A stretch of DNA of 64,000 nucleotides from Oscillospiraceae bacterium (lineage in GTDB: Bacteria; Bacillota; Clostridia; Oscillospirales; Oscillospiraceae): positions 936 through 64,935 of the forward strand of contig SVKZ01000003.1 of NCBI GenBank assembly GCA_015068165.1, written 5' to 3'. The position numbers and the translations under genes were made by a program. The notes under the pieces are model-generated. The model saw only the letters and a list, made by a program, of their open reading frames with translations, made no database searches and was not told where the DNA came from. Positions 1 through 42,843 of the stretch are shown here, one piece after another (position 1 is the first letter of the stretch; each line of letters opens with the position of its first letter).

Positions 1-9
1 GGCGTGCCA

Positions 10-33
10 GAAAAACCGACAAGTCGGTTTTTC
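10..33. terminator. Palindromic hairpin (GAAAAACCGAC-AA-GTCGGTTTTTC), likely bidirectional terminator or processing stem
   Basis: Perfect 11-bp inverted repeat with A/T tracts on both sides. Confidence 0.55.
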
Positions 34-34
34 A

Positions 35-206
35 ACGAAATAAATCCTAACGGATTTGTGAAATAACGCTACGCGTTGTGAAATAGCTTACGCTGTGAAA
101 TGCCTGCGGGCGTGAGTGGATTTATTTCATTTCACTTTCTGCGTTAGCAGAAAATTTCACTTCGTCGAAGACGAAATTTCGCCGTGAGCGAAGCGAATGA
201 TTTCAC
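35..206. repeat. Structured heptamer-hairpin element, copy A (GTGAAAT-type x4 / ATTTCAC-type x4)
   Basis: ACGAAAT 35-41; GTGAAAT 58-64, 78-84, 95-101; ATTTCAC 129-135, 154-160, 200-206; ATTTCGC 176-182; most heptamers are separated by short hairpins. Confidence 0.85.
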
Positions 207-222
207 TCTTATCTTAATATTT

Positions 223-299
223 GGTGGGTGTAGTTCAATTGGCAGAGCACCGGATTGTGGTTCCGGGCGTTGTGGGTTCGAGTCCCATTACCCACCCCA
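223..299 (+). tRNA. tRNA-His(GTG)
   Basis: Cloverleaf; anticodon arm CCGGA-TTGTGGT-TCCGG; T-loop TTCGAGT; His identity pair G-1(223):C73(296); encoded CCA 297-299. Confidence 0.97.
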
Positions 300-338
300 T
301 AAAAAGAAAGGATACCAATCGGTATCCTTTCTTTTTAT
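299..338. terminator. Bidirectional intrinsic terminator after tRNA-His
   Basis: 18-bp perfect stem ATAAAAAGAAAGGATACC / GGTATCCTTTCTTTTTAT with 4-nt loop. Confidence 0.85.
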
Positions 339-349
339 GTGTAGGAAGG

Positions 350-449
350 AATGGGACTCGAAGATCTAAAATGCAATATGCCGGTGGCATATTGCTGCCA
401 CCAGTGCAAACACCGGTGGCTACCTTGATTAATGAGTCCCATTACCCAC
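350..449. repeat. tRNA-His-associated hairpin cassette bounded by inverted (350-362) and direct (434-449) copies of the tRNA 3' part
   Basis: AATGGGACTCGAA is the reverse complement of tRNA 277-289; GAGTCCCATTACCCAC equals tRNA 280-295; two 10-bp internal hairpins (373-395, 397-420). Confidence 0.8.
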
Positions 450-472
450 TCGGCAAAGGAACGGGTGAGAGT

Positions 473-520
473 GTAGGGGCGTTCAAAGATCGCCCGCAGG
501 CGAACTCAGTTCGCCCCTAC
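473..520. repeat. GTAG-type REP-like doublet
   Basis: GTAGGGGCG...CGCCCCTAC ends with an internal GGCGAAC-TCA-GTTCGCC hairpin. Confidence 0.65.
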
Positions 521-566
521 GGGGTCTAACGATGGGGCGCAAAGCATTCCCACAGGGGAAGGTTTA

Positions 567-604
567 GGCGGTGGAGAAATCTCCACCGCCCGGTTTTTTA
601 TTTT
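567..604. terminator. Intrinsic terminator hairpin
   Basis: GGCGGTGGAG-AAAT-CTCCACCGCC followed by a T-rich tract on +. Confidence 0.7.
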
Positions 605-610
605 CTTGCG

Positions 611-3600
611 TTAGACCTTTTTCTTTCTGTCAATGAAGAACCAGATCACAAATGCAACACCGCCGCAGAGGGTTACACCGGAAACGATTGCCACAATAAT
701 CAGCACTGTCTGCAGTTCATCGGTCTTTGCTTCCAAAGCACGATCCTTTGCTTCCAGCTCTGCCTTAACTGCCTCCAGTTCATTCTGCACAGCTTTAATT
801 GTTGCCTCTAATGTATTATAGGCTTCCTCAATCTTGCTGTTAAGCTCTGCTTTGTTGGCTGCATCCGCCGCTTCCAGAGCAACCTTTGCGGCTTTCAGCG
901 CCTCATTTAAGTCTGCGATCTTCGCTTCCAAAGCGGCATCGCCAGACTTGATAGCCTTCTTCAGCTCGGCCTTCGTGTTATCCAGGTTCTTTTGGACAGC
1001 CTTGATTGCCGCATCGAGGGTGGCGTTGAGTGCATCGACTTTGGTCTCCAGTTCCGCCTTATTTTCTGCATCAGCTGTTTCCAGAGCCGCCTTTGCTGCC
1101 GCCAGGGCAGTGTTCAGCTCAGAAATCTTGCTTTCCAGGGCAGTGTCGCCGTCTGCAATGGCTTTATCAAGCTCTGCTTTGGCATCATCCAAATTCTTCT
1201 GCACAGTCTTAACTGCCGCGTCCAGAGTCTTGTAGTTTTCGCTGATCTTGGCAGTCAGCTCTGCCTTGTCTGCGGCATCTGCGCTTTCAAGGGCGGTCTT
1301 TGCTGCTGTCAGGGCGGTGTTTAGATCGGAAATTTTGCCTTCCAGAGCAGTATCGCCATCTGCAATCGCCTTTTCCAGCTCTGCCTTAGCGTCGTCCAAG
1401 TTCTTCTGCACAGCCTTAACTGCTGCATCCAAAACCTTGTCGGCATTTTCAAACTTCGCTACAAGCTCTGCGTTATTCTTGGCATCGGCTTTTTCCAAAA
1501 GTTCCTTTGTACTTGCCAGCTCCGACTGCAGGGCTGCAATCTTGTCTGCCAAATCCTTGTCGCCGGACTTGATTGCAGCATCCAATTCTGCCGTTGCCTT
1601 ATCCAGGTTGCCCTGCACCTGAGCGATCTTCTCGTCCAGCTTCTTTTCGGCGGCGGCAATCTTTGCTTCCAACGCCTTATCGCTGGAAACGGCGGCTGCC
1701 TTTGCCTCGTCAATGGCCTTGTCCAGTTTTTCGACTGCTTTCGCAAGCTCTTCGGCGTTCTCGGTATCTGCCTTATTGAGTTTTTCTACAGCCTCTTCCA
1801 GATTCTTCTTAATTTCAGCAATTTTGTCTTCGTTTGCCTTTACCCGGCTTTCCAGTTCGGAAATTGCATCGTTTAGTTCTGTCTTGGCTGCTTTAATTTC
1901 TGCTTCCAGTGCAAGCTTCAGCGCCGCATCAGCATCGGTAGCAAAATTCTGCGCGGTGGTCTGTGCAAGGGTAATTGCTGCTTCAAGATCGCTGATTGCC
2001 TTTTCAAGGGCGGTAATGTCCGCTTTCTTTGCAATGGCTGCGTTAAGCTCAGTCTTCGCCTGGGTCAATGCGTTGTCTGCCGCGTCAATCGCTTCCTGCT
2101 TTGCATTTGCAATCGCTGTTTCAAACTGCTGCTTTAATGCGGTGTCCTTTGTATCGGCATAAGCCTTTGCTGCTGCCTCGGCAGTCTCAATAGCGGTTTT
2201 CAGCTCCTGAACCTTTGCATTTAGAGTTGTGGTGTCTGCCTTCTTGTCAATGGCTGTCTGAAGCTCGGTCTTTGCGTCGTTTACAAGGGTTTCCGCCGCA
2301 GAAATCGCTTCGCTCTTTGCTGTGGCAATGGCACTTTCAAGCTGCCGTTTTAAGGTTGCATCTGCACCCTTAAAATCATCCTTTGCTTCCTCAAGGGCTG
2401 TAATCTTGCCCAAAAGCTCATTCAGCTTCTGATTGACCGTGTCGGTGTCCGCTTTCTTCGCAATCAGCTCTTTGATTTCATCCACTGCCGCATTTAACTC
2501 TGTCTTGGTGGCATAGATGCTGCCCAGTGCATCAACTTTCTGTTCCAAGGTCTCGATGCGACTGATAGCCGTCTGCAGCTCTGCATCGGTAGCATAGCCA
2601 TCTATCGCGCTCTCAAGTGTTGCGATCTCCCCTTGGATAATAGCGATCTCGTCGCTAAGTTCTTTATCGGTTGCGAAAGTTTCGTCCAGCTTACTTAGCT
2701 TTTCTTCCAGCATTGCAATCTTAGCTTCAAGCTCTGCGGTGTCCGCAGTAGGCACACCAACCGTCAGTGCCAGCTCGCCCTCGGCAGCGGTATAGTTGGT
2801 AGTTTCGGTGCTCTGGATTTTGACTTTGATGGTAGAGCCGATCGCCACACCGTTATCAATGGTGATGGTGTTGCCTGTAACAGAGTAACCTTCGCCATCC
2901 AAAACGGTAAAGATCGTGGGATTCAAGAAATTGTCAATGGCACTGGTAGTGGGGGTGATTTCCATCACATAGCCACCCATAACCTTGTCCAGCGGCGCAT
3001 CTGCGAAAATGATGGGGGTTGCTTTCTTAATTTCAAAAGTTGCCGTTCCCTCGAAGTTGCCGCTGATAACCACGGTTGCGGTGCCTGCGTTTATATTGTT
3101 GCTGTAAGTAACAGTGCCGCCGTATGCCGTAGCATCAAACGGAATACCGCCAAGGTCAATATATACTGTGGGCTTCTGTTCTGAGCCATTGTAAACGATC
3201 TCCTCGAGAACCGAGCCTACGCTGATCTGACCTGCCGAAAGCTGAATAGGATTGATCGTCATATCGTAAGTAAGCGTAACATCGTTATAGTCGGGAGATC
3301 CGCTGATCTGAACGCAAACCTCATACGCACCTGCATTGGTAGGTGCGCCCATAAGCTGATTGCTGTTCTCATAGTATTTTATGGTAACATATCCTTCGAG
3401 CTCATCGGGCAGATTGGTAATTGTTACACCCTGCACACTCATATTGTACTCGGTGCTAAGACCGCTTATCGTAAAATCCGCTTCCGTAAGGGTAATCTTT
3501 TGGAAGGCAAAGGTAGCCGCCACGGTAACAGCCTTTGCAGGCATTGTGAACTTATTATCTGCCACAGCAACGGGATTGCCGTCTGCATCGGTAACGGTGA

Positions 3601-26053: not shown

Positions 26054-26427
26054 AAAAACTCCGAAAGGTTTAGCATTGTGTCTAAAAGGACACAATGTAT
26101 CGATATAAATCCCTGACGGGATTTTCGATATACACCTTCGGTGTTCGATATGTGCCGTGCACTCGATATGCCCTGTGGGGCGTGAAGGGATTTATATCAT
26201 ATCGAATTTACCGTAAGGTAAATATATCGATTTTTCCGCAAGGAAAAATATCGAATTGCGAAGCAATATATCGACAAAAAATTACTACCCGAAAAAGAGC
26301 GTTTATTTCTCTTCTTCGGGTAGTTTTGTCTTATACTGTCATAAGCAGGAAATTTATGTGCCAAATTCCAATTAAATTAAAGATAACTGTCCTTGGTGCC
26401 CCTGCTCTTTAACCTTTCGGAGTTTTT
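26054..26427. repeat. 374-bp region bounded by a perfect 17-bp inverted repeat (split terminator or MITE-like ends)
   Basis: AAAAACTCCGAAAGGTT 26054-26070 / AACCTTTCGGAGTTTTT 26411-26427. Confidence 0.7.
26100..26274. repeat. Structured heptamer-hairpin element, copy B (TCGATAT x4 / ATATCGA x4)
   Basis: TCGATAT 26100, 26125, 26145, 26163; ATATCGA 26199, 26224, 26248, 26268; hairpins between heptamers. Confidence 0.85.
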
Positions 26428-39787: not shown

Positions 39788-42571
39788 TTAGATATCTAAG
39801 TCCATTTTTGCAATTACGGCGGCGCAGCGGGGGCAAAGACCCTCGGCGTTTGCTTCCGTGGAGTGCATCCAGCAACGGGGGCACTTTTCGCCTTGTGCTT
39901 CGCTGACACCGATGGTGAGGGCGGGGAAGTTGACACCGGTGCCAACCTCAGCGCCTTCCTCAGCACTTGCCCAGTCGCAGGCAGAAACGATGCAGATTTC
40001 AGCAAGATTCAGACCTTCACAAGCGGCCTTGATGGCATCGTCGCCGGTTTCTAAGGTAACCCGGGCTTCCAGGGCTTTGCCGATCCGCTTTTCGGCTCTT
40101 GCCTTTTCCAGAACGCCGTTGACATCCTGGCGGAGCTTCATAACGGTTTCCCACTTTGCCATAGCGGCCTCGTCCAGGGCGTAAGAAGCAAAATCAGCAG
40201 GCATTTGGTTTAGCAGAACATTGCGGGCATCATCGCCATCCTTATGGGGCATTGCCTGCCAAATTTCGTCGCAGGTGTAAGCCAAAATGGGAGCGAACAG
40301 CTTGGCAAGGGCATCCACAATGAGGTAGAGGGCGGTCTGTGCGCTGCGGCGGCGCAGGCCGTCCTTTTCTTCACAGTACAGACGGTCCTTCAAAATATCC
40401 AAATAGAAGGAGGACAGCTCAACCACGCAGAAGTCGTTAATATCGTGGGTAATGGCGTGGAATTCGTAGCCGTCATATGCCTTACGGCAGTCCTTGACCA
40501 GAGCATCCAGCTTGGTCAGCGCCCACTTGTCCAGCTCTTCCATATCCGCGGGAGCTACCAGGTTATTGGGATCGAAGCCCTCCAGGTTGCCTAAGCAGTA
40601 CCGGGCGGTATTACGGAACTTCAGGTAGTTCTGGGCGATCTGCTTGAAGATCTCCTTGGAGCAGCGCACGTCTGCGTGGTAATCGGAGGAAGCCGCCCAC
40701 AAACGGACAATATCCGCACCGAAATCCTTGATAAGGTCAGCGGGGTCAACGCCGTTACCGAGAGATTTGTGCATTGCGCGACCCTGGCCGTCAACAACCC
40801 AGCCGTGGGTCAGAACCTGCTTGAAGGGAGCGCCCTGATCCAGCGCGCCAACGGAGGTGAGCAAGCTGGACTGGAACCAGCCACGGTACTGGTCTGCGCC
40901 CTCCAGATAGACATCGGCCGGCCACAGCTCGGGGGTGCGGTGCATCAGGGAAGAGAAGTGGGTAGAGCCGGAGTCAAACCAGCAGTCTAAGGTGTCGGTT
41001 TCCTTATCGAAATCCTTGCCGCCGCAGTGGGGGCAGGTGAAGCCCTCGGGAACAAGCTCCATAGCATCTTTCTCAAACCAAACATTGGAGCCATATTCGT
41101 CAAACAGTGCAGAAATTTTGGCAATGGAGTCGGGGGTGGAAACGGGCTTGCCGCAGTCCTTACAGTAGAACACAGGGATGGGCAAACCCCAGCGGCGCTG
41201 ACGGGAAATACACCAGTCGGCACGCTCCCGAATCATCGAAATCATACGGTCCTCGCCCCAGGCGGGATACCACTGGACATTTTCAATGGCCTTTACTGCC
41301 TGATCCTTGAAGGATTCCACAGAGCAGAACCACTGGGGGGTTGCCCGGAAGATAACGGGCTTCTTGCAGCGGTCGTGGTGGGGGTAGGAGTGGATAATCT
41401 CCTCGGAAGCGAACAGCGCACCGCTCTCCTTCATATCGGCAAGGATAATGGGGTTAGACTCCTCGGTCTTGAGGCCTGCGTACTTACCGGCATAATCGGT
41501 GTGGCGGCCGTAGTCGTCCACAGGAACAATCAGCTCCATACCGTAACGCATACAGGTTTGATAGTCGTCTGCACCGAAGCCGGGGGCAGTGTGAACACAG
41601 CCGGTACCGGAATCCATCGTAACATACTCGGCCCAAACAAGGCGGCTGGTCTTGGGGAGGAAAGGATGCTGTGCCAGCATATTTTCAAAGAATGCACCGG
41701 GATAGGTGGCGATGACCTCATAGTTTTCAAAGCCGCCCATCTTCATCGTCTTTTCTGTCAATGCTTCTGCCATAATGTAGGTTTCGCCGTTATCGGCTTT
41801 CACCAGCACATAGCTATCCCGGGGGTGGAGGCAGATTGCCATATTGCCGGGAAGCGTCCAGATGGTGGTGGTCCAAATGACAAAGTAGGCATTCTCCACA
41901 CCGGGGAGCTTGCCCAAATCGTCCTTCAGGGCAAACTTTACATATACAGAGGTACAGGGGTCATCCTTATACTCAATGTCCGCTTCGGCAACGGCTGTAG
42001 CGCAGAAGGGACACCAGGTAACGGGCTTGAGACCCTTGTAAATAAAGCCCTTGTCGAACATCCGGCCAAAGACCTTGACCTCCTGGGCTTCAAAATGCTT
42101 GTCCATCGTGCGGTAGGGGTTTTCCCAATCACCCACAACACCCAAACGCTTGAAGCCGCCCATCTGCTTCTGAATAAAGTCCTCGGCAAAGTCCTCACAG
42201 GCCTTGCGGAATTCAGGAACGGACATATCCTTGTTGAGCTTCTTCTTGGAGTTTTCGATGGCGCGCTCAATGGGAAGACCGTGGTTATCCCAGCCGGGGA
42301 CATAGGGGGTGTAGAAGCCCATCATTGCGTGGCTGCGGACAATAAAGTCCTTCAGGCACTTATTAAGGGCGTGGCCCATATGGATATAGCCGTTACTAAA
42401 GGGAGGGCCGTCGTGGAGAATGAAGGGGGGCAGATCCTTGTTTTTCTCTAACATTGCGTTATAAAGGTCGCTCTCCTCCCAGCGCTGGAGCATTGCAGGC
42501 TCTCTCTGGGGCAGACCCGCTTTCATAGGAAAGTCGGTTTTCGGGGTGATGATCGTGTTTTTGTATTCCAT
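39788..42571 (-). CDS. ileS: Isoleucine-tRNA ligase (type 1, C-terminal Zn finger)
   Basis: KTDFPMKA, HMGH, PGWDNHGLPIE, WCISRQRRWG, EGADQYRGWF, CPRCW. Confidence 0.97.
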   Translation of the reverse strand: MEYKNTIITPKTDFPMKAGLPQREPAMLQRWEESDLYNAMLEKNKDLPPFILHDGPPFSNGYIHMGHALNKCLKDFIVRSHAMMGFYTPYVPGWDNHGLPIERAIENSKKKLNKDMSVPEFRKACEDFAEDFIQKQMGGFKRLGVVGDWENPYRTMDKHFEAQEVKVFGRMFDKGFIYKGLKPVTWCPFCATAVAEADIEYKDDPCTSVYVKFALKDDLGKLPGVENAYFVIWTTTIWTLPGNMAICLHPRDSYVLVKADNGETYIMAEALTEKTMKMGGFENYEVIATYPGAFFENMLAQHPFLPKTSRLVWAEYVTMDSGTGCVHTAPGFGADDYQTCMRYGMELIVPVDDYGRHTDYAGKYAGLKTEESNPIILADMKESGALFASEEIIHSYPHHDRCKKPVIFRATPQWFCSVESFKDQAVKAIENVQWYPAWGEDRMISMIRERADWCISRQRRWGLPIPVFYCKDCGKPVSTPDSIAKISALFDEYGSNVWFEKDAMELVPEGFTCPHCGGKDFDKETDTLDCWFDSGSTHFSSLMHRTPELWPADVYLEGADQYRGWFQSSLLTSVGALDQGAPFKQVLTHGWVVDGQGRAMHKSLGNGVDPADLIKDFGADIVRLWAASSDYHADVRCSKEIFKQIAQNYLKFRNTARYCLGNLEGFDPNNLVAPADMEELDKWALTKLDALVKDCRKAYDGYEFHAITHDINDFCVVELSSFYLDILKDRLYCEEKDGLRRRSAQTALYLIVDALAKLFAPILAYTCDEIWQAMPHKDGDDARNVLLNQMPADFASYALDEAAMAKWETVMKLRQDVNGVLEKARAEKRIGKALEARVTLETGDDAIKAACEGLNLAEICIVSACDWASAEEGAEVGTGVNFPALTIGVSEAQGEKCPRCWMHSTEANAEGLCPRCAAVIAKMDLDI

Positions 42572-42594: not shown

Positions 42595-42840
42595 CAAAAT
42601 AAAAATGCCTTTGTCTCCCAATAAGAGACAAAGGCATAATAACCTCTGCGGTACCACTCTTGTTCCGGTTTCCCGGCGCTCGTGTGCACTTTATCGGGTG
42701 CAACCGGCATAGCCTACTGTCTGAAGATTTCGGTATGCTGCTCAAAGGGGATATGTTCACCGAGCTGTTACTGCCTTGCACCAAACGGCAGTTCTCTGAA
42801 AACAGGGGAGCGGGAACACCTGTCCTTATCTACGCATTGC
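42595..42840 (-). promoter_or_regulatory. T-box riboswitch (Ile)
   Basis: T-box AGAGTGGTACCGC (42648-42660); ATC specifier at 42726-42728; terminator ATGCCTTTGTCTC/GAGACAAAGGCAT 42605-42637. Confidence 0.88.
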
Positions 42841-42843
42841 ATA

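Follow-up and report, generated by a model that had tools for sequence, protein, structure and literature searches.

Copies A and B of a heptamer-hairpin element in an Oscillospiraceae genome are gene-less members of the Gut-1 repeat of gut Clostridia

The Gut-1 repeat and other described systems

The Gut-1 repeat has been listed in Rfam since 2010 as an orphan small RNA ('sRNA') known from gut metagenomes only. Here we analyze a window of 64,000 nucleotides from an Oscillospiraceae bacterium (assembly GCA_015068165.1, contig SVKZ01000003.1, positions 936 to 64,935, forward strand), in which two heptamer-hairpin elements, copy A (35-206) and copy B (26100-26274), are gene-less members of this catalogued Gut-1-type repeat of gut Clostridia. 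The motif was originally reported as 43 human gut metagenome sequences, with the sole comment that it was found nowhere else, and its Stockholm file already includes GUGAUAU members (Weinberg et al. 2010, Genome Biol 11:R31, PMC2864571). The unmodelled flanks of that alignment hold an inverted 3' half, a tRNA-terminator-element context and an outer inverted repeat (PMC2864571). Our literature search returned no later paper treating Gut-1, which is mentioned only by Weinberg et al. and in one structure-prediction benchmark, and no paper connecting it with PF05635, the protein family considered below. A paper on TAACTGA heptamer repeats concerns different repeats and does not mention that family (PMC4679880). 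The Gut-1 family itself is known; its larger architecture and its link to PF05635 are not in the literature searched.

The Rfam model (RF01706) matches copy A at 33-106 on the plus strand with 70.4 bits, at a gathering score of 50, and at 119-184 on the minus strand with 37.5 bits. Because the model matches both strands of copy A, the element is a pair of Gut-1 half-motifs that face inward. Copy B reaches a sub-threshold 21.7 bits, a low score caused by its UCGAUAU linkers, and aligns hairpin by hairpin. The Gut-1 hallmark of three covarying hairpins with UGAAAU/UGAUAU-type linkers is kept in copy A; copy B has every hairpin, with its own linkers. The Rfam motif shares with the two copies its three mini-hairpins, its GUGAAAU/GUGAUAU linkers and its occurrence in uncultured gut bacteria. 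However, Rfam models 77 nt of one strand under the type 'Gene; sRNA', with no function, whereas the element described here is ~170-200 nt long, dyad-symmetric and multi-copy, contains a long-range helix (P1), carries lineage-specific words, is insertion-polymorphic and is linked to PF05635. The initial annotation had matched the element to no named REP or non-coding RNA family and had itself named an Rfam match as what would remove its novelty. The former statement is wrong, as copy A is RF01706, and much of the novelty goes with it.

Among other described systems, 23S rRNA intervening sequences (IVSs) bearing an open reading frame (ORF) are found in Leptospira, Coxiella and Xanthomonas. They resemble the present elements in tying a PF05635 gene to an element in a hairpin loop of a stable-RNA-type structure, since copy B and a further copy on contig C53 lie in terminator loops, bounded by the host stem. 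The elements studied here differ in lying outside rRNA, and most follow tRNA terminators instead of interrupting a helix. Copy B is a true hairpin-loop insertion of 340 nt, whereas copy A follows its hairpin; neither contains an ORF or lies in an rRNA gene. We know of no heptamer/hairpin arrays described for IVSs, nor, for the large PF05635 family (23S IVS protein / Avd-like), of an assigned function outside diversity-generating retroelements.

REP/BIME and REPIN-RAYT systems are likewise short multi-copy intergenic palindromes, often inverted pairs, behind genes or terminators and patchy in copy number. Here, in contrast, no RAYT/Y1 transposase is linked to the repeat or found in this genome, and the unit is a set of different hairpins joined by one repeated word rather than one conserved palindrome. 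Integron attC sites share the cassette-associated imperfect palindrome that conserves structure and not sequence, and identical copies of the present element can also flank small cassettes; the common start TTTCAAC fits the inverse core RYYYAAC at 6 of 7 positions. Unlike in attC, the GTTRRRY core is not found after the last word, and the element is far more elaborate (7-8 hairpins, 8-9 words) and seated at the feet of tRNAs and terminators. No IntI turned up, although no search was aimed at it. CRISPR was already dismissed by the initial annotation, and correctly so: the repeat is 7 nt long rather than about 24-48 nt, the 'spacers' are self-complementary hairpins of 10-18 nt rather than unique sequences of about 25-40 nt, and the orientation flips at the centre. 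Finally, ring proteins such as TRAP (GAG/UAG repeats), Hfq and HutP read tandem short words on single strands. The likeness lies in regularly spaced identical short words that match the number of subunits of a homo-oligomer, with 4-5 words per half-array or tandem set and a putative reader that is pentameric. The present words differ in being 7 nt long and separated by hairpins instead of short linkers, the PF05635 fold is unrelated, and the reader is putative.

Words, hairpins and the long-range helix

Both heptamer-hairpin elements drawn by the initial annotation are present at the positions given above. Copy A contains four forward words (ACGAAAT at 35-41; GTGAAAT at 58-64, 78-84 and 95-101) and four reverse words (ATTTCAC at 129-135, 154-160 and 200-206; ATTTCGC at 176-182). 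Every spacer between words holds a mini-hairpin flush with both flanking words, and GAAATAAATCC (37-47) is exactly complementary to GGATTTATTTC (118-128). Copy B repeats this order and spacing with TCGATAT starting at 26100, 26125, 26145 and 26163, ATATCGA starting at 26199, 26224, 26248 and 26268, and the long-range pair GATATAAATCCC (26102-26113) / GGGATTTATATC (26187-26198). When folds are compared with dinucleotide shuffles, z is -4.8 for copy A and -5.3 for copy B, with none of 200 shuffles as good.

The conserved features were extracted from 73 oriented elements of many genomes by script-based segmentation, with pairs counted on a MAFFT alignment. Hairpins of at least 3 bp make up 91% of the 398 spacers, stems of at least 4 bp occur in 78% as opposed to 12% of shuffled spacers, and 350 spacers are flush with both words. 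The stems comprise 139 distinct sequences. In the 49 GTGAAAT-type elements, 316 of 342 words are exact (92%), while the first hairpin alone (hp1) occurs in 37 different sequences. This combination of exact words and diverse hairpins indicates that the words are constrained as sequence and the hairpins only as structure. The family is a real one, with further copies and structure-level selection on the hairpins, and the word is uniform inside one element and different between elements, as had been proposed from the two copies. The spectrum of word variants within elements is confounded by a consistently different F0 (ACGAAAT) and by noisy calls of R0.

P1 pairs the first forward word and its arm (F0+a) with a'2 and the shortened reverse word R0. 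It is paired in 99.0% of cells, and 9 of its 11 pairs show changes on both sides; none of 500 shuffles reaches these values, and slid controls are paired at 34-55%. The same 'a' strand also forms the local hairpin hp0, paired in 95.8% with double changes in all six pairs (again 0/500 shuffles). P1 and hp0 are mutually exclusive, yet both pairings are maintained. When nested and parallel pairing of forward and reverse words are compared, the sub-family L063/L154 fits better in parallel order, and word variation within elements is too rare to choose between the two orders.

The counted stem pairs hint at the level on which the structure acts. Watson-Crick pairs account for 1748 of 1787, with 17 G.T and 9 A.C; G.T thus makes up ~1%, and its strand bias (17 vs 9) is not significant. 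G.U asymmetry as a test of the transcribed strand was dropped, as these numbers are too few. An apparent preference for RNA-type UUCG/GNRA tetraloops dissolved on counting, the loops being mostly 3-nt TTC/GAA. The loops of the 3' half (GAA, GCA, GCAA, GTAA, GTCA) are reverse complements of those of the 5' half (TTC, TGC, TTGC, TTAC, TGAC). These mirrored loop types point to a dyad DNA element rather than to one RNA fold. The forward and reverse words are complementary because the dyad carries the half-motif on both strands, so that the eight coordinated substitutions between copies A and B, which the initial annotation took, as one of two options, for compensatory pairing in one multi-branch fold, do not require such a fold. 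The 'compensatory swap' from GTGAAAT in A to TCGATAT in B is best read as sub-family divergence of one repeated putative recognition word, and not as covariation of eight helices.

The PF05635 gene and the competing explanations

A four-helix-bundle ORF follows the arrays of three loci (L016, L069, L124). Of 41 genomes, 19 carry both Gut-1 and PF05635, 3 only Gut-1, 2 only PF05635 and 17 neither (Fisher p = 1e-6). For at least 10 PF05635 genes, a Gut-1 match of the same orientation immediately precedes the gene, and 44 of 46 such genes have a 7-nt-periodic array directly upstream, the remaining two loci ending at contig ends. These arrays are of three main kinds: heptamer+hairpin dyads, adjacent heptamers that form a long hairpin, and 4-5 direct tandem heptamers, which stand before the PF05635 ribosome-binding site; two further arrays are forward-only heptamer+hairpin. 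Their words include GTGAAAT, GTGAAGT, ATGATGT, GTTATAT, ATGAATT, TATGTAA, CTTACCT, ACTATTC, TTGAGAA and others, many with a TGA core. In a maximum-likelihood tree of 43 PF05635 proteins, each word family forms its own well-supported clade. In complete cassettes, the last reverse word is followed by a sigma-70-like promoter ahead of the gene; in 2 of 3 loci this word overlaps the -35 element TTCACA. The protein matches PF05635 and is homologous to PDB 2RLD (E = 1e-23, five chains). A complete element thus stands directly ahead of the promoter that serves a small PF05635 gene (23S-rRNA-IVS / Avd-like), predicted to encode a pentameric four-helix bundle.

The two copies in the window depart from this layout: copy A is followed by tRNA-His, and copy B by a terminator-like hairpin and then a convergent sugar-kinase (kdgK-type) gene. 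Pseudogene remnants of PF05635 adjoining A or B were considered and rejected, as tblastn found none near either copy. The single PF05635 gene of this genome (C1:6272-6589) is 5'-truncated, with its start lost, and lies beside a TCGATAT array; its protein is 74% identical to a TCGATAT-linked protein of genome G013. With no such gene at A or B and the sole genomic one truncated, both copies are orphans, and within this window they are ordinary orphan members of the Gut-1 family. No transposase adjoins the element, as first reported. The HUH/RAYT enzyme proposed there as a possible partner shows no co-occurrence with Gut-1 (Y1_Tnp, PF01797; Fisher p = 0.76), and PF01797 is not found in this genome (G000) or in G007, G015, G027 and G036, which have 12-39 Gut-1 half-matches each. 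A RAYT or IS200-type partner was accordingly rejected.

On balance we lean, with modest confidence, toward copies A and B as orphan Gut-1 heptamer/hairpin arrays in which the word is the sequence-specific part and the oligomeric reader is most likely a PF05635 pentamer. The mini-hairpins would then serve as sequence-free structural spacers. Each element lineage has its own 7-nt word, a variation on xTGAxxx / xxGAWRT, and the two inward-facing half-arrays place it on both strands. Words within one array may be identical because identical subunits of one homo-oligomer read them; we infer this to be the simplest reason for the uniformity, with PF05635 as the obvious candidate. Hairpins and the alternative P1 helix could align neighbouring words next to each other in single-stranded or extruded form. 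Copies A and B would have lost the gene, or never had it, and are probably inert relics here. The initial suggestion of a programmable protein-binding scaffold is compatible with the gene link.

Several observations weigh against this explanation. The agreement between clades and words is expected from plain co-inheritance of linked DNA too. This genome has six word families and no intact PF05635 gene, and genome G008 (L098-L101), in which PF05635 has no match, has ~60 arrays that consist of a forward half only, with RTGAAATC words and 4-5 hairpins, each placed after a stop codon and before a terminator, indicating that arrays can be kept and even increase in number in a genome that lacks the protein. 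The present assembly (1.39 Mb) has a completeness of 92.5%, and the relatives are metagenome-assembled genomes (MAGs). Some biology is missing from this picture, be it mobility by another route or an RNA-level role. As RNA, the sense strand has a slightly lower minimum free energy in 36 of 49 elements, polarity follows upstream transcription, and the direct tandem heptamers of some relatives lie in intercistronic mRNA; action at the RNA level therefore stays in play.

A bolder version, which we regard as doubtful though worth stating, is a two-part system of Gut-1 array and PF05635 pentamer in which each clade reads its own 7-nt word as a lineage-specific 'address'. The word could be shown several times as single strand between extruded hairpins, for example around a multiloop closed by P1. 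Such orthogonal protein/nucleic-acid pairs might control or mobilize small cassettes whose targets are terminator hairpins and the 3' ends of tRNAs, and orphan arrays like A and B would be their footprints. Either way, the catalogued motif becomes half of a larger, mobile, dyad element with a lineage-specific word that tracks PF05635 clades, and two unexplained objects merge into one testable hypothesis. If the pentamer does read the words, nature would offer a set of orthogonal short-word recognition modules; if it does not, the arrays are still widespread terminator- and tRNA-associated repeats that interrupt MAG assemblies and carry a wrong annotation as an sRNA gene.

Two other explanations have to be weighed against the pentamer-read word. 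The Rfam listing and the main idea of the initial annotation both take the element as a structured non-coding RNA, transcribed co-directionally with the tRNA or gene that precedes it, in which nested pairing of forward and reverse words forms a ladder of four-way junctions, or a switch with P1, and the swap is true covariation. The strong fold z-scores of both copies fit this account, as do the switch-like covariation of the mutually exclusive P1 and hp0, the sense-strand energies, the strict polarity, the G008 arrays between stop codon and terminator, and the place of copy A in a tRNA operon, where it is probably transcribed. Pairing, however, needs complementarity only and not eight identical words, and the words are 92% exact. 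The scarcity of G.T pairs without significant strand bias, the mirrored loops and the match of one covariance model to both strands speak against a single RNA as well, and so do the position of most copies behind a terminator-like hairpin, that of complete cassettes upstream of a promoter, and a high copy number with patchy distribution, which is typical of repeats. With a terminator upstream, dyad symmetry and Watson-Crick-only stems, the sequence leans against the sRNA-gene typing of Rfam, and we consider an RNA of this kind fairly unlikely.

A recombination site of folded single-stranded DNA, belonging to a mobile cassette system and akin to attC, REPIN or the 23S IVS, seems to us unlikely as well. 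At this cis site, a host or other enzyme would place small cassettes with PF05635, GNAT or leucine-rich-repeat genes next to terminator hairpins and the 3' ends of tRNAs, with PF05635 as cargo or accessory and words that differ by cassette lineage. This would suit the empty sites and the insertions in the loop or at the foot of terminators, the identical hairpin+array copies that flank segments next to tRNAs, the tandem arrays (L016, L096), and the methyltransferase-gene site that holds different-word cassettes in two genomes, both with a hairpin arm complementary to the coding-sequence end. Watson-Crick-only stems also suit DNA hairpins, and PF05635 genes are known, as the Pfam family name records, from rRNA intervening sequences inserted in hairpin loops. 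No recombinase is linked to the arrays, though, with Y1/HUH showing no co-occurrence and integrases not profiled; the junctions at C52 and B show no sign of a target-site duplication; and the model alone leaves the identical words within an array unexplained. Chance low-complexity palindromes or an assembly artefact have a negligible probability. Nothing favours them except the many copies at MAG contig ends, and they are refuted by hundreds of copies with conserved architecture in independent assemblies, by covariation that no shuffle matches, by the rarity of comparable hairpins in shuffled spacers and by the independent discovery of the motif in 2010.

Insertion sites, spread and neighbouring features

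Across gut Clostridia, the repeat is dispersed and insertion-polymorphic, and it has a polarity despite its dyad symmetry. It sits as a rule at the foot, on the 3' side, of a terminator-like hairpin, with a tRNA gene as the most frequent upstream neighbour; a terminator loop is an occasional site. F0 is immediately preceded by a 5' hairpin in nearly all copies inspected (exception: C47), frequently in the form CCA-G-A(5-6)-GCAC...GTGC-T(5-6)-CAAC. A co-oriented tRNA ends 25-69 nt upstream of F0 in 37 of 71 oriented elements, and a convergent tRNA at the R end occurs in none of the 71. Seven copies of this genome come after tRNA genes. The element ends are inverted (CA+word ... word+TG). Features of the two loci are collected in Table 1.

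Table 1. Features of the copy A and copy B loci (window coordinates)
Feature	Position	Strand	Remarks
Copy A 5' terminator-like hairpin	10..33	+	AAAAACCGA-CAAG-TCGGTTTTT; after tRNA-Arg(tct) CCA+G, before CAAC
Copy A forward half = Gut-1 (RF01706)	33..106	+	words F0-F3, hairpins hp0-hp2; model positions 1-77
Copy A P1 5' strand (F0 + arm a)	37..47	+	arm also pairs with 52-57 as local hairpin hp0
Copy A hairpin hp3	102-111		
Copy A P1 3' strand (a'2 + shortened reverse word R0)	118..128	+	
Copy A reverse half	129..206	+	words R1-R4 and three hairpins; minus-strand Gut-1 match
tRNA-His(gtg), downstream of copy A	224..299	+	only tRNA-His found in assembly; tRNA-Gly/Arg/His operon
Copy B, left arm with A-run of split host bidirectional terminator	26054..26070	+	17-nt inverted repeat
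Copy B 5' hairpin	26075..26096	+	ATTGTGTC-TAAAAG-GACACAAT; directly upstream of F0
Copy B forward half	26100..26198	+	TCGATAT x4, hp0-hp3, both P1 strands
Copy B reverse half	26199..26274	+	ATATCGA x4 and three hairpins
Terminator-like hairpin + T-run in copy B insert	26285..26327	+	perfect stem CTACCCGAA.AAGAG / CTCTT.TTCGGGTAG
Extra sequence (~83 nt) in copy B insert	26328..26410	+	repeat in other genomes
Copy B, right arm with T-run of split host terminator	26411..26427	+	

Empty-site alleles, which the initial annotation had proposed to look for in relatives, were found for both copies. Copy A lies in the order promoter-tRNA-Gly-tRNA-Arg-[hairpin+array]-tRNA-His; no sigma-70-like promoter was found ahead of tRNA-His in window 1-640, and copy A is therefore probably transcribed by read-through. 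In relatives without the insert, the gap between tRNA-Arg and tRNA-His is 18 nt (G004), 36 nt (G009) or 5 nt (G026), and the 5' hairpin is missing too; a near-identical stem stands before the C11 copy. At the same site, G012:C13 (L059) has an 88-nt spacer with one hairpin followed by adjacent heptamers, AAGTAAT AAGTAAT AGTGAAG AGTGAAA facing TTCACTA TTCACTC TTACCTC TTACTTC, a hairpin-free version of the array. G016 and G003 carry a different repeat between the two tRNA genes, which ends with a duplicated tRNA-Arg 3' end. It belongs to a second repeat family (GGGACTCGAAGAT.TAAAATGCAATATGCCGGTGGCATATTGCTGCCACCAGTGCAAACAC...) that also occurs at window 350-449 and behind no fewer than 12 further tRNA terminators of this genome (e.g. 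C8:9626-9788, C39:4203-4445), and that matches no Rfam family at gathering score.

Site B is occupied in G001, the nearest relative and of the same genus, by an intact bidirectional terminator, AAAAAACTCCGAAAGG-ACGA-ACCTTTCGGAGTTTTTT, flanked by D-Ala-D-Ala carboxypeptidase (dac-type) and sugar-kinase (kdgK-type) genes. In the present genome, the terminator loop has received the array with its 5' hairpin, followed by a terminator-like hairpin and 83 nt of a different repeat. Stretches 86-90% identical to this last part (26328-26410) occur twice in G015, away from the arrays inspected there. The C53 copy likewise splits a terminator, which G012 has in intact form, the C47 copy is not present at its site in G001, and the C52 copy comes right after a terminator whose homologue in G003 has no array. 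The 5' hairpin is thus the host's own terminator at C52, but came in with the array at copy A. A MITE would have terminal inverted repeats and a target-site duplication; the ends here are inverted, as given above, and comparison with the empty sites reveals no duplication at the B or C52 junctions.

Other loci show further arrangements. PF05635 cassettes follow the same methyltransferase gene in this genome (C1:6090-6600) and in G012:C30 (L308), with the words TCGATAT and ATGAATT, respectively. In both, the right arm of the 5' hairpin is reverse-complementary to the final ~13-15 nt of the coding sequence, and four congeners without the cassette are also without such a hairpin. In two Clostridia MAG loci (L200:100-3220, L232:4200-5300), near-identical copies of terminator hairpin and array flank segments of 2.7 kb and 0.7 kb, a layout like that of a cassette array; the 0.7-kb segment contains a leucine-rich-repeat ORF, and a tRNA adjoins. 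In this genome, the tRNA-Trp 3' end (C38:32169-32244) is repeated ~9 kb downstream (C38: about 41090-41116), directly before a terminator and a GTGATGT array, which looks like an island integrated into tRNA-Trp.

Our own scan and the Rfam model together place at least 13 arrays in this genome, on contigs C1, C11, C12, C21, C24 (two), C35, C38, C41, C47, C52, C53 and C54, with 17 Gut-1 half-matches. Its six words (GTGAAAT, TCGATAT, ATGAAAT, GTGATGT, ATGATAT, GTGAAGT) all fit xxGAWRT. Gut-1 occurs in 22 of 41 relatives, at 0-60 half-matches per genome, with large differences within the genus and many matches at contig ends. In a broader Clostridia sample, it was detected in 72 of 399 genomes, representing 41 of 217 genera, and in none of 14 control genomes. 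A pattern scan of the genome collection gave real arrays in 33 of the 120 loci listed and many chance matches outside Clostridia; among the matches listed, the named records that contain real arrays are MAGs of gut or rumen Clostridia (Ruminococcaceae, Oscillospiraceae, Acutalibacteraceae, Christensenellaceae). A typical ATGAAAT/ATTTCAC array adjoining a tRNA was also seen in an uncultured Bacteroidaceae MAG (L168, 1550-1751), and a GC-rich array of (C)GATATAACC words and hairpins in an Akkermansia MAG (L169, 5742-5934). Binning contamination, horizontal transfer or a distant relative may account for these two. Elsewhere in the window, a T-box leader (RF00230) was detected at 42621-42841 on the minus strand with 95.1 bits, just over the gathering score of 93.

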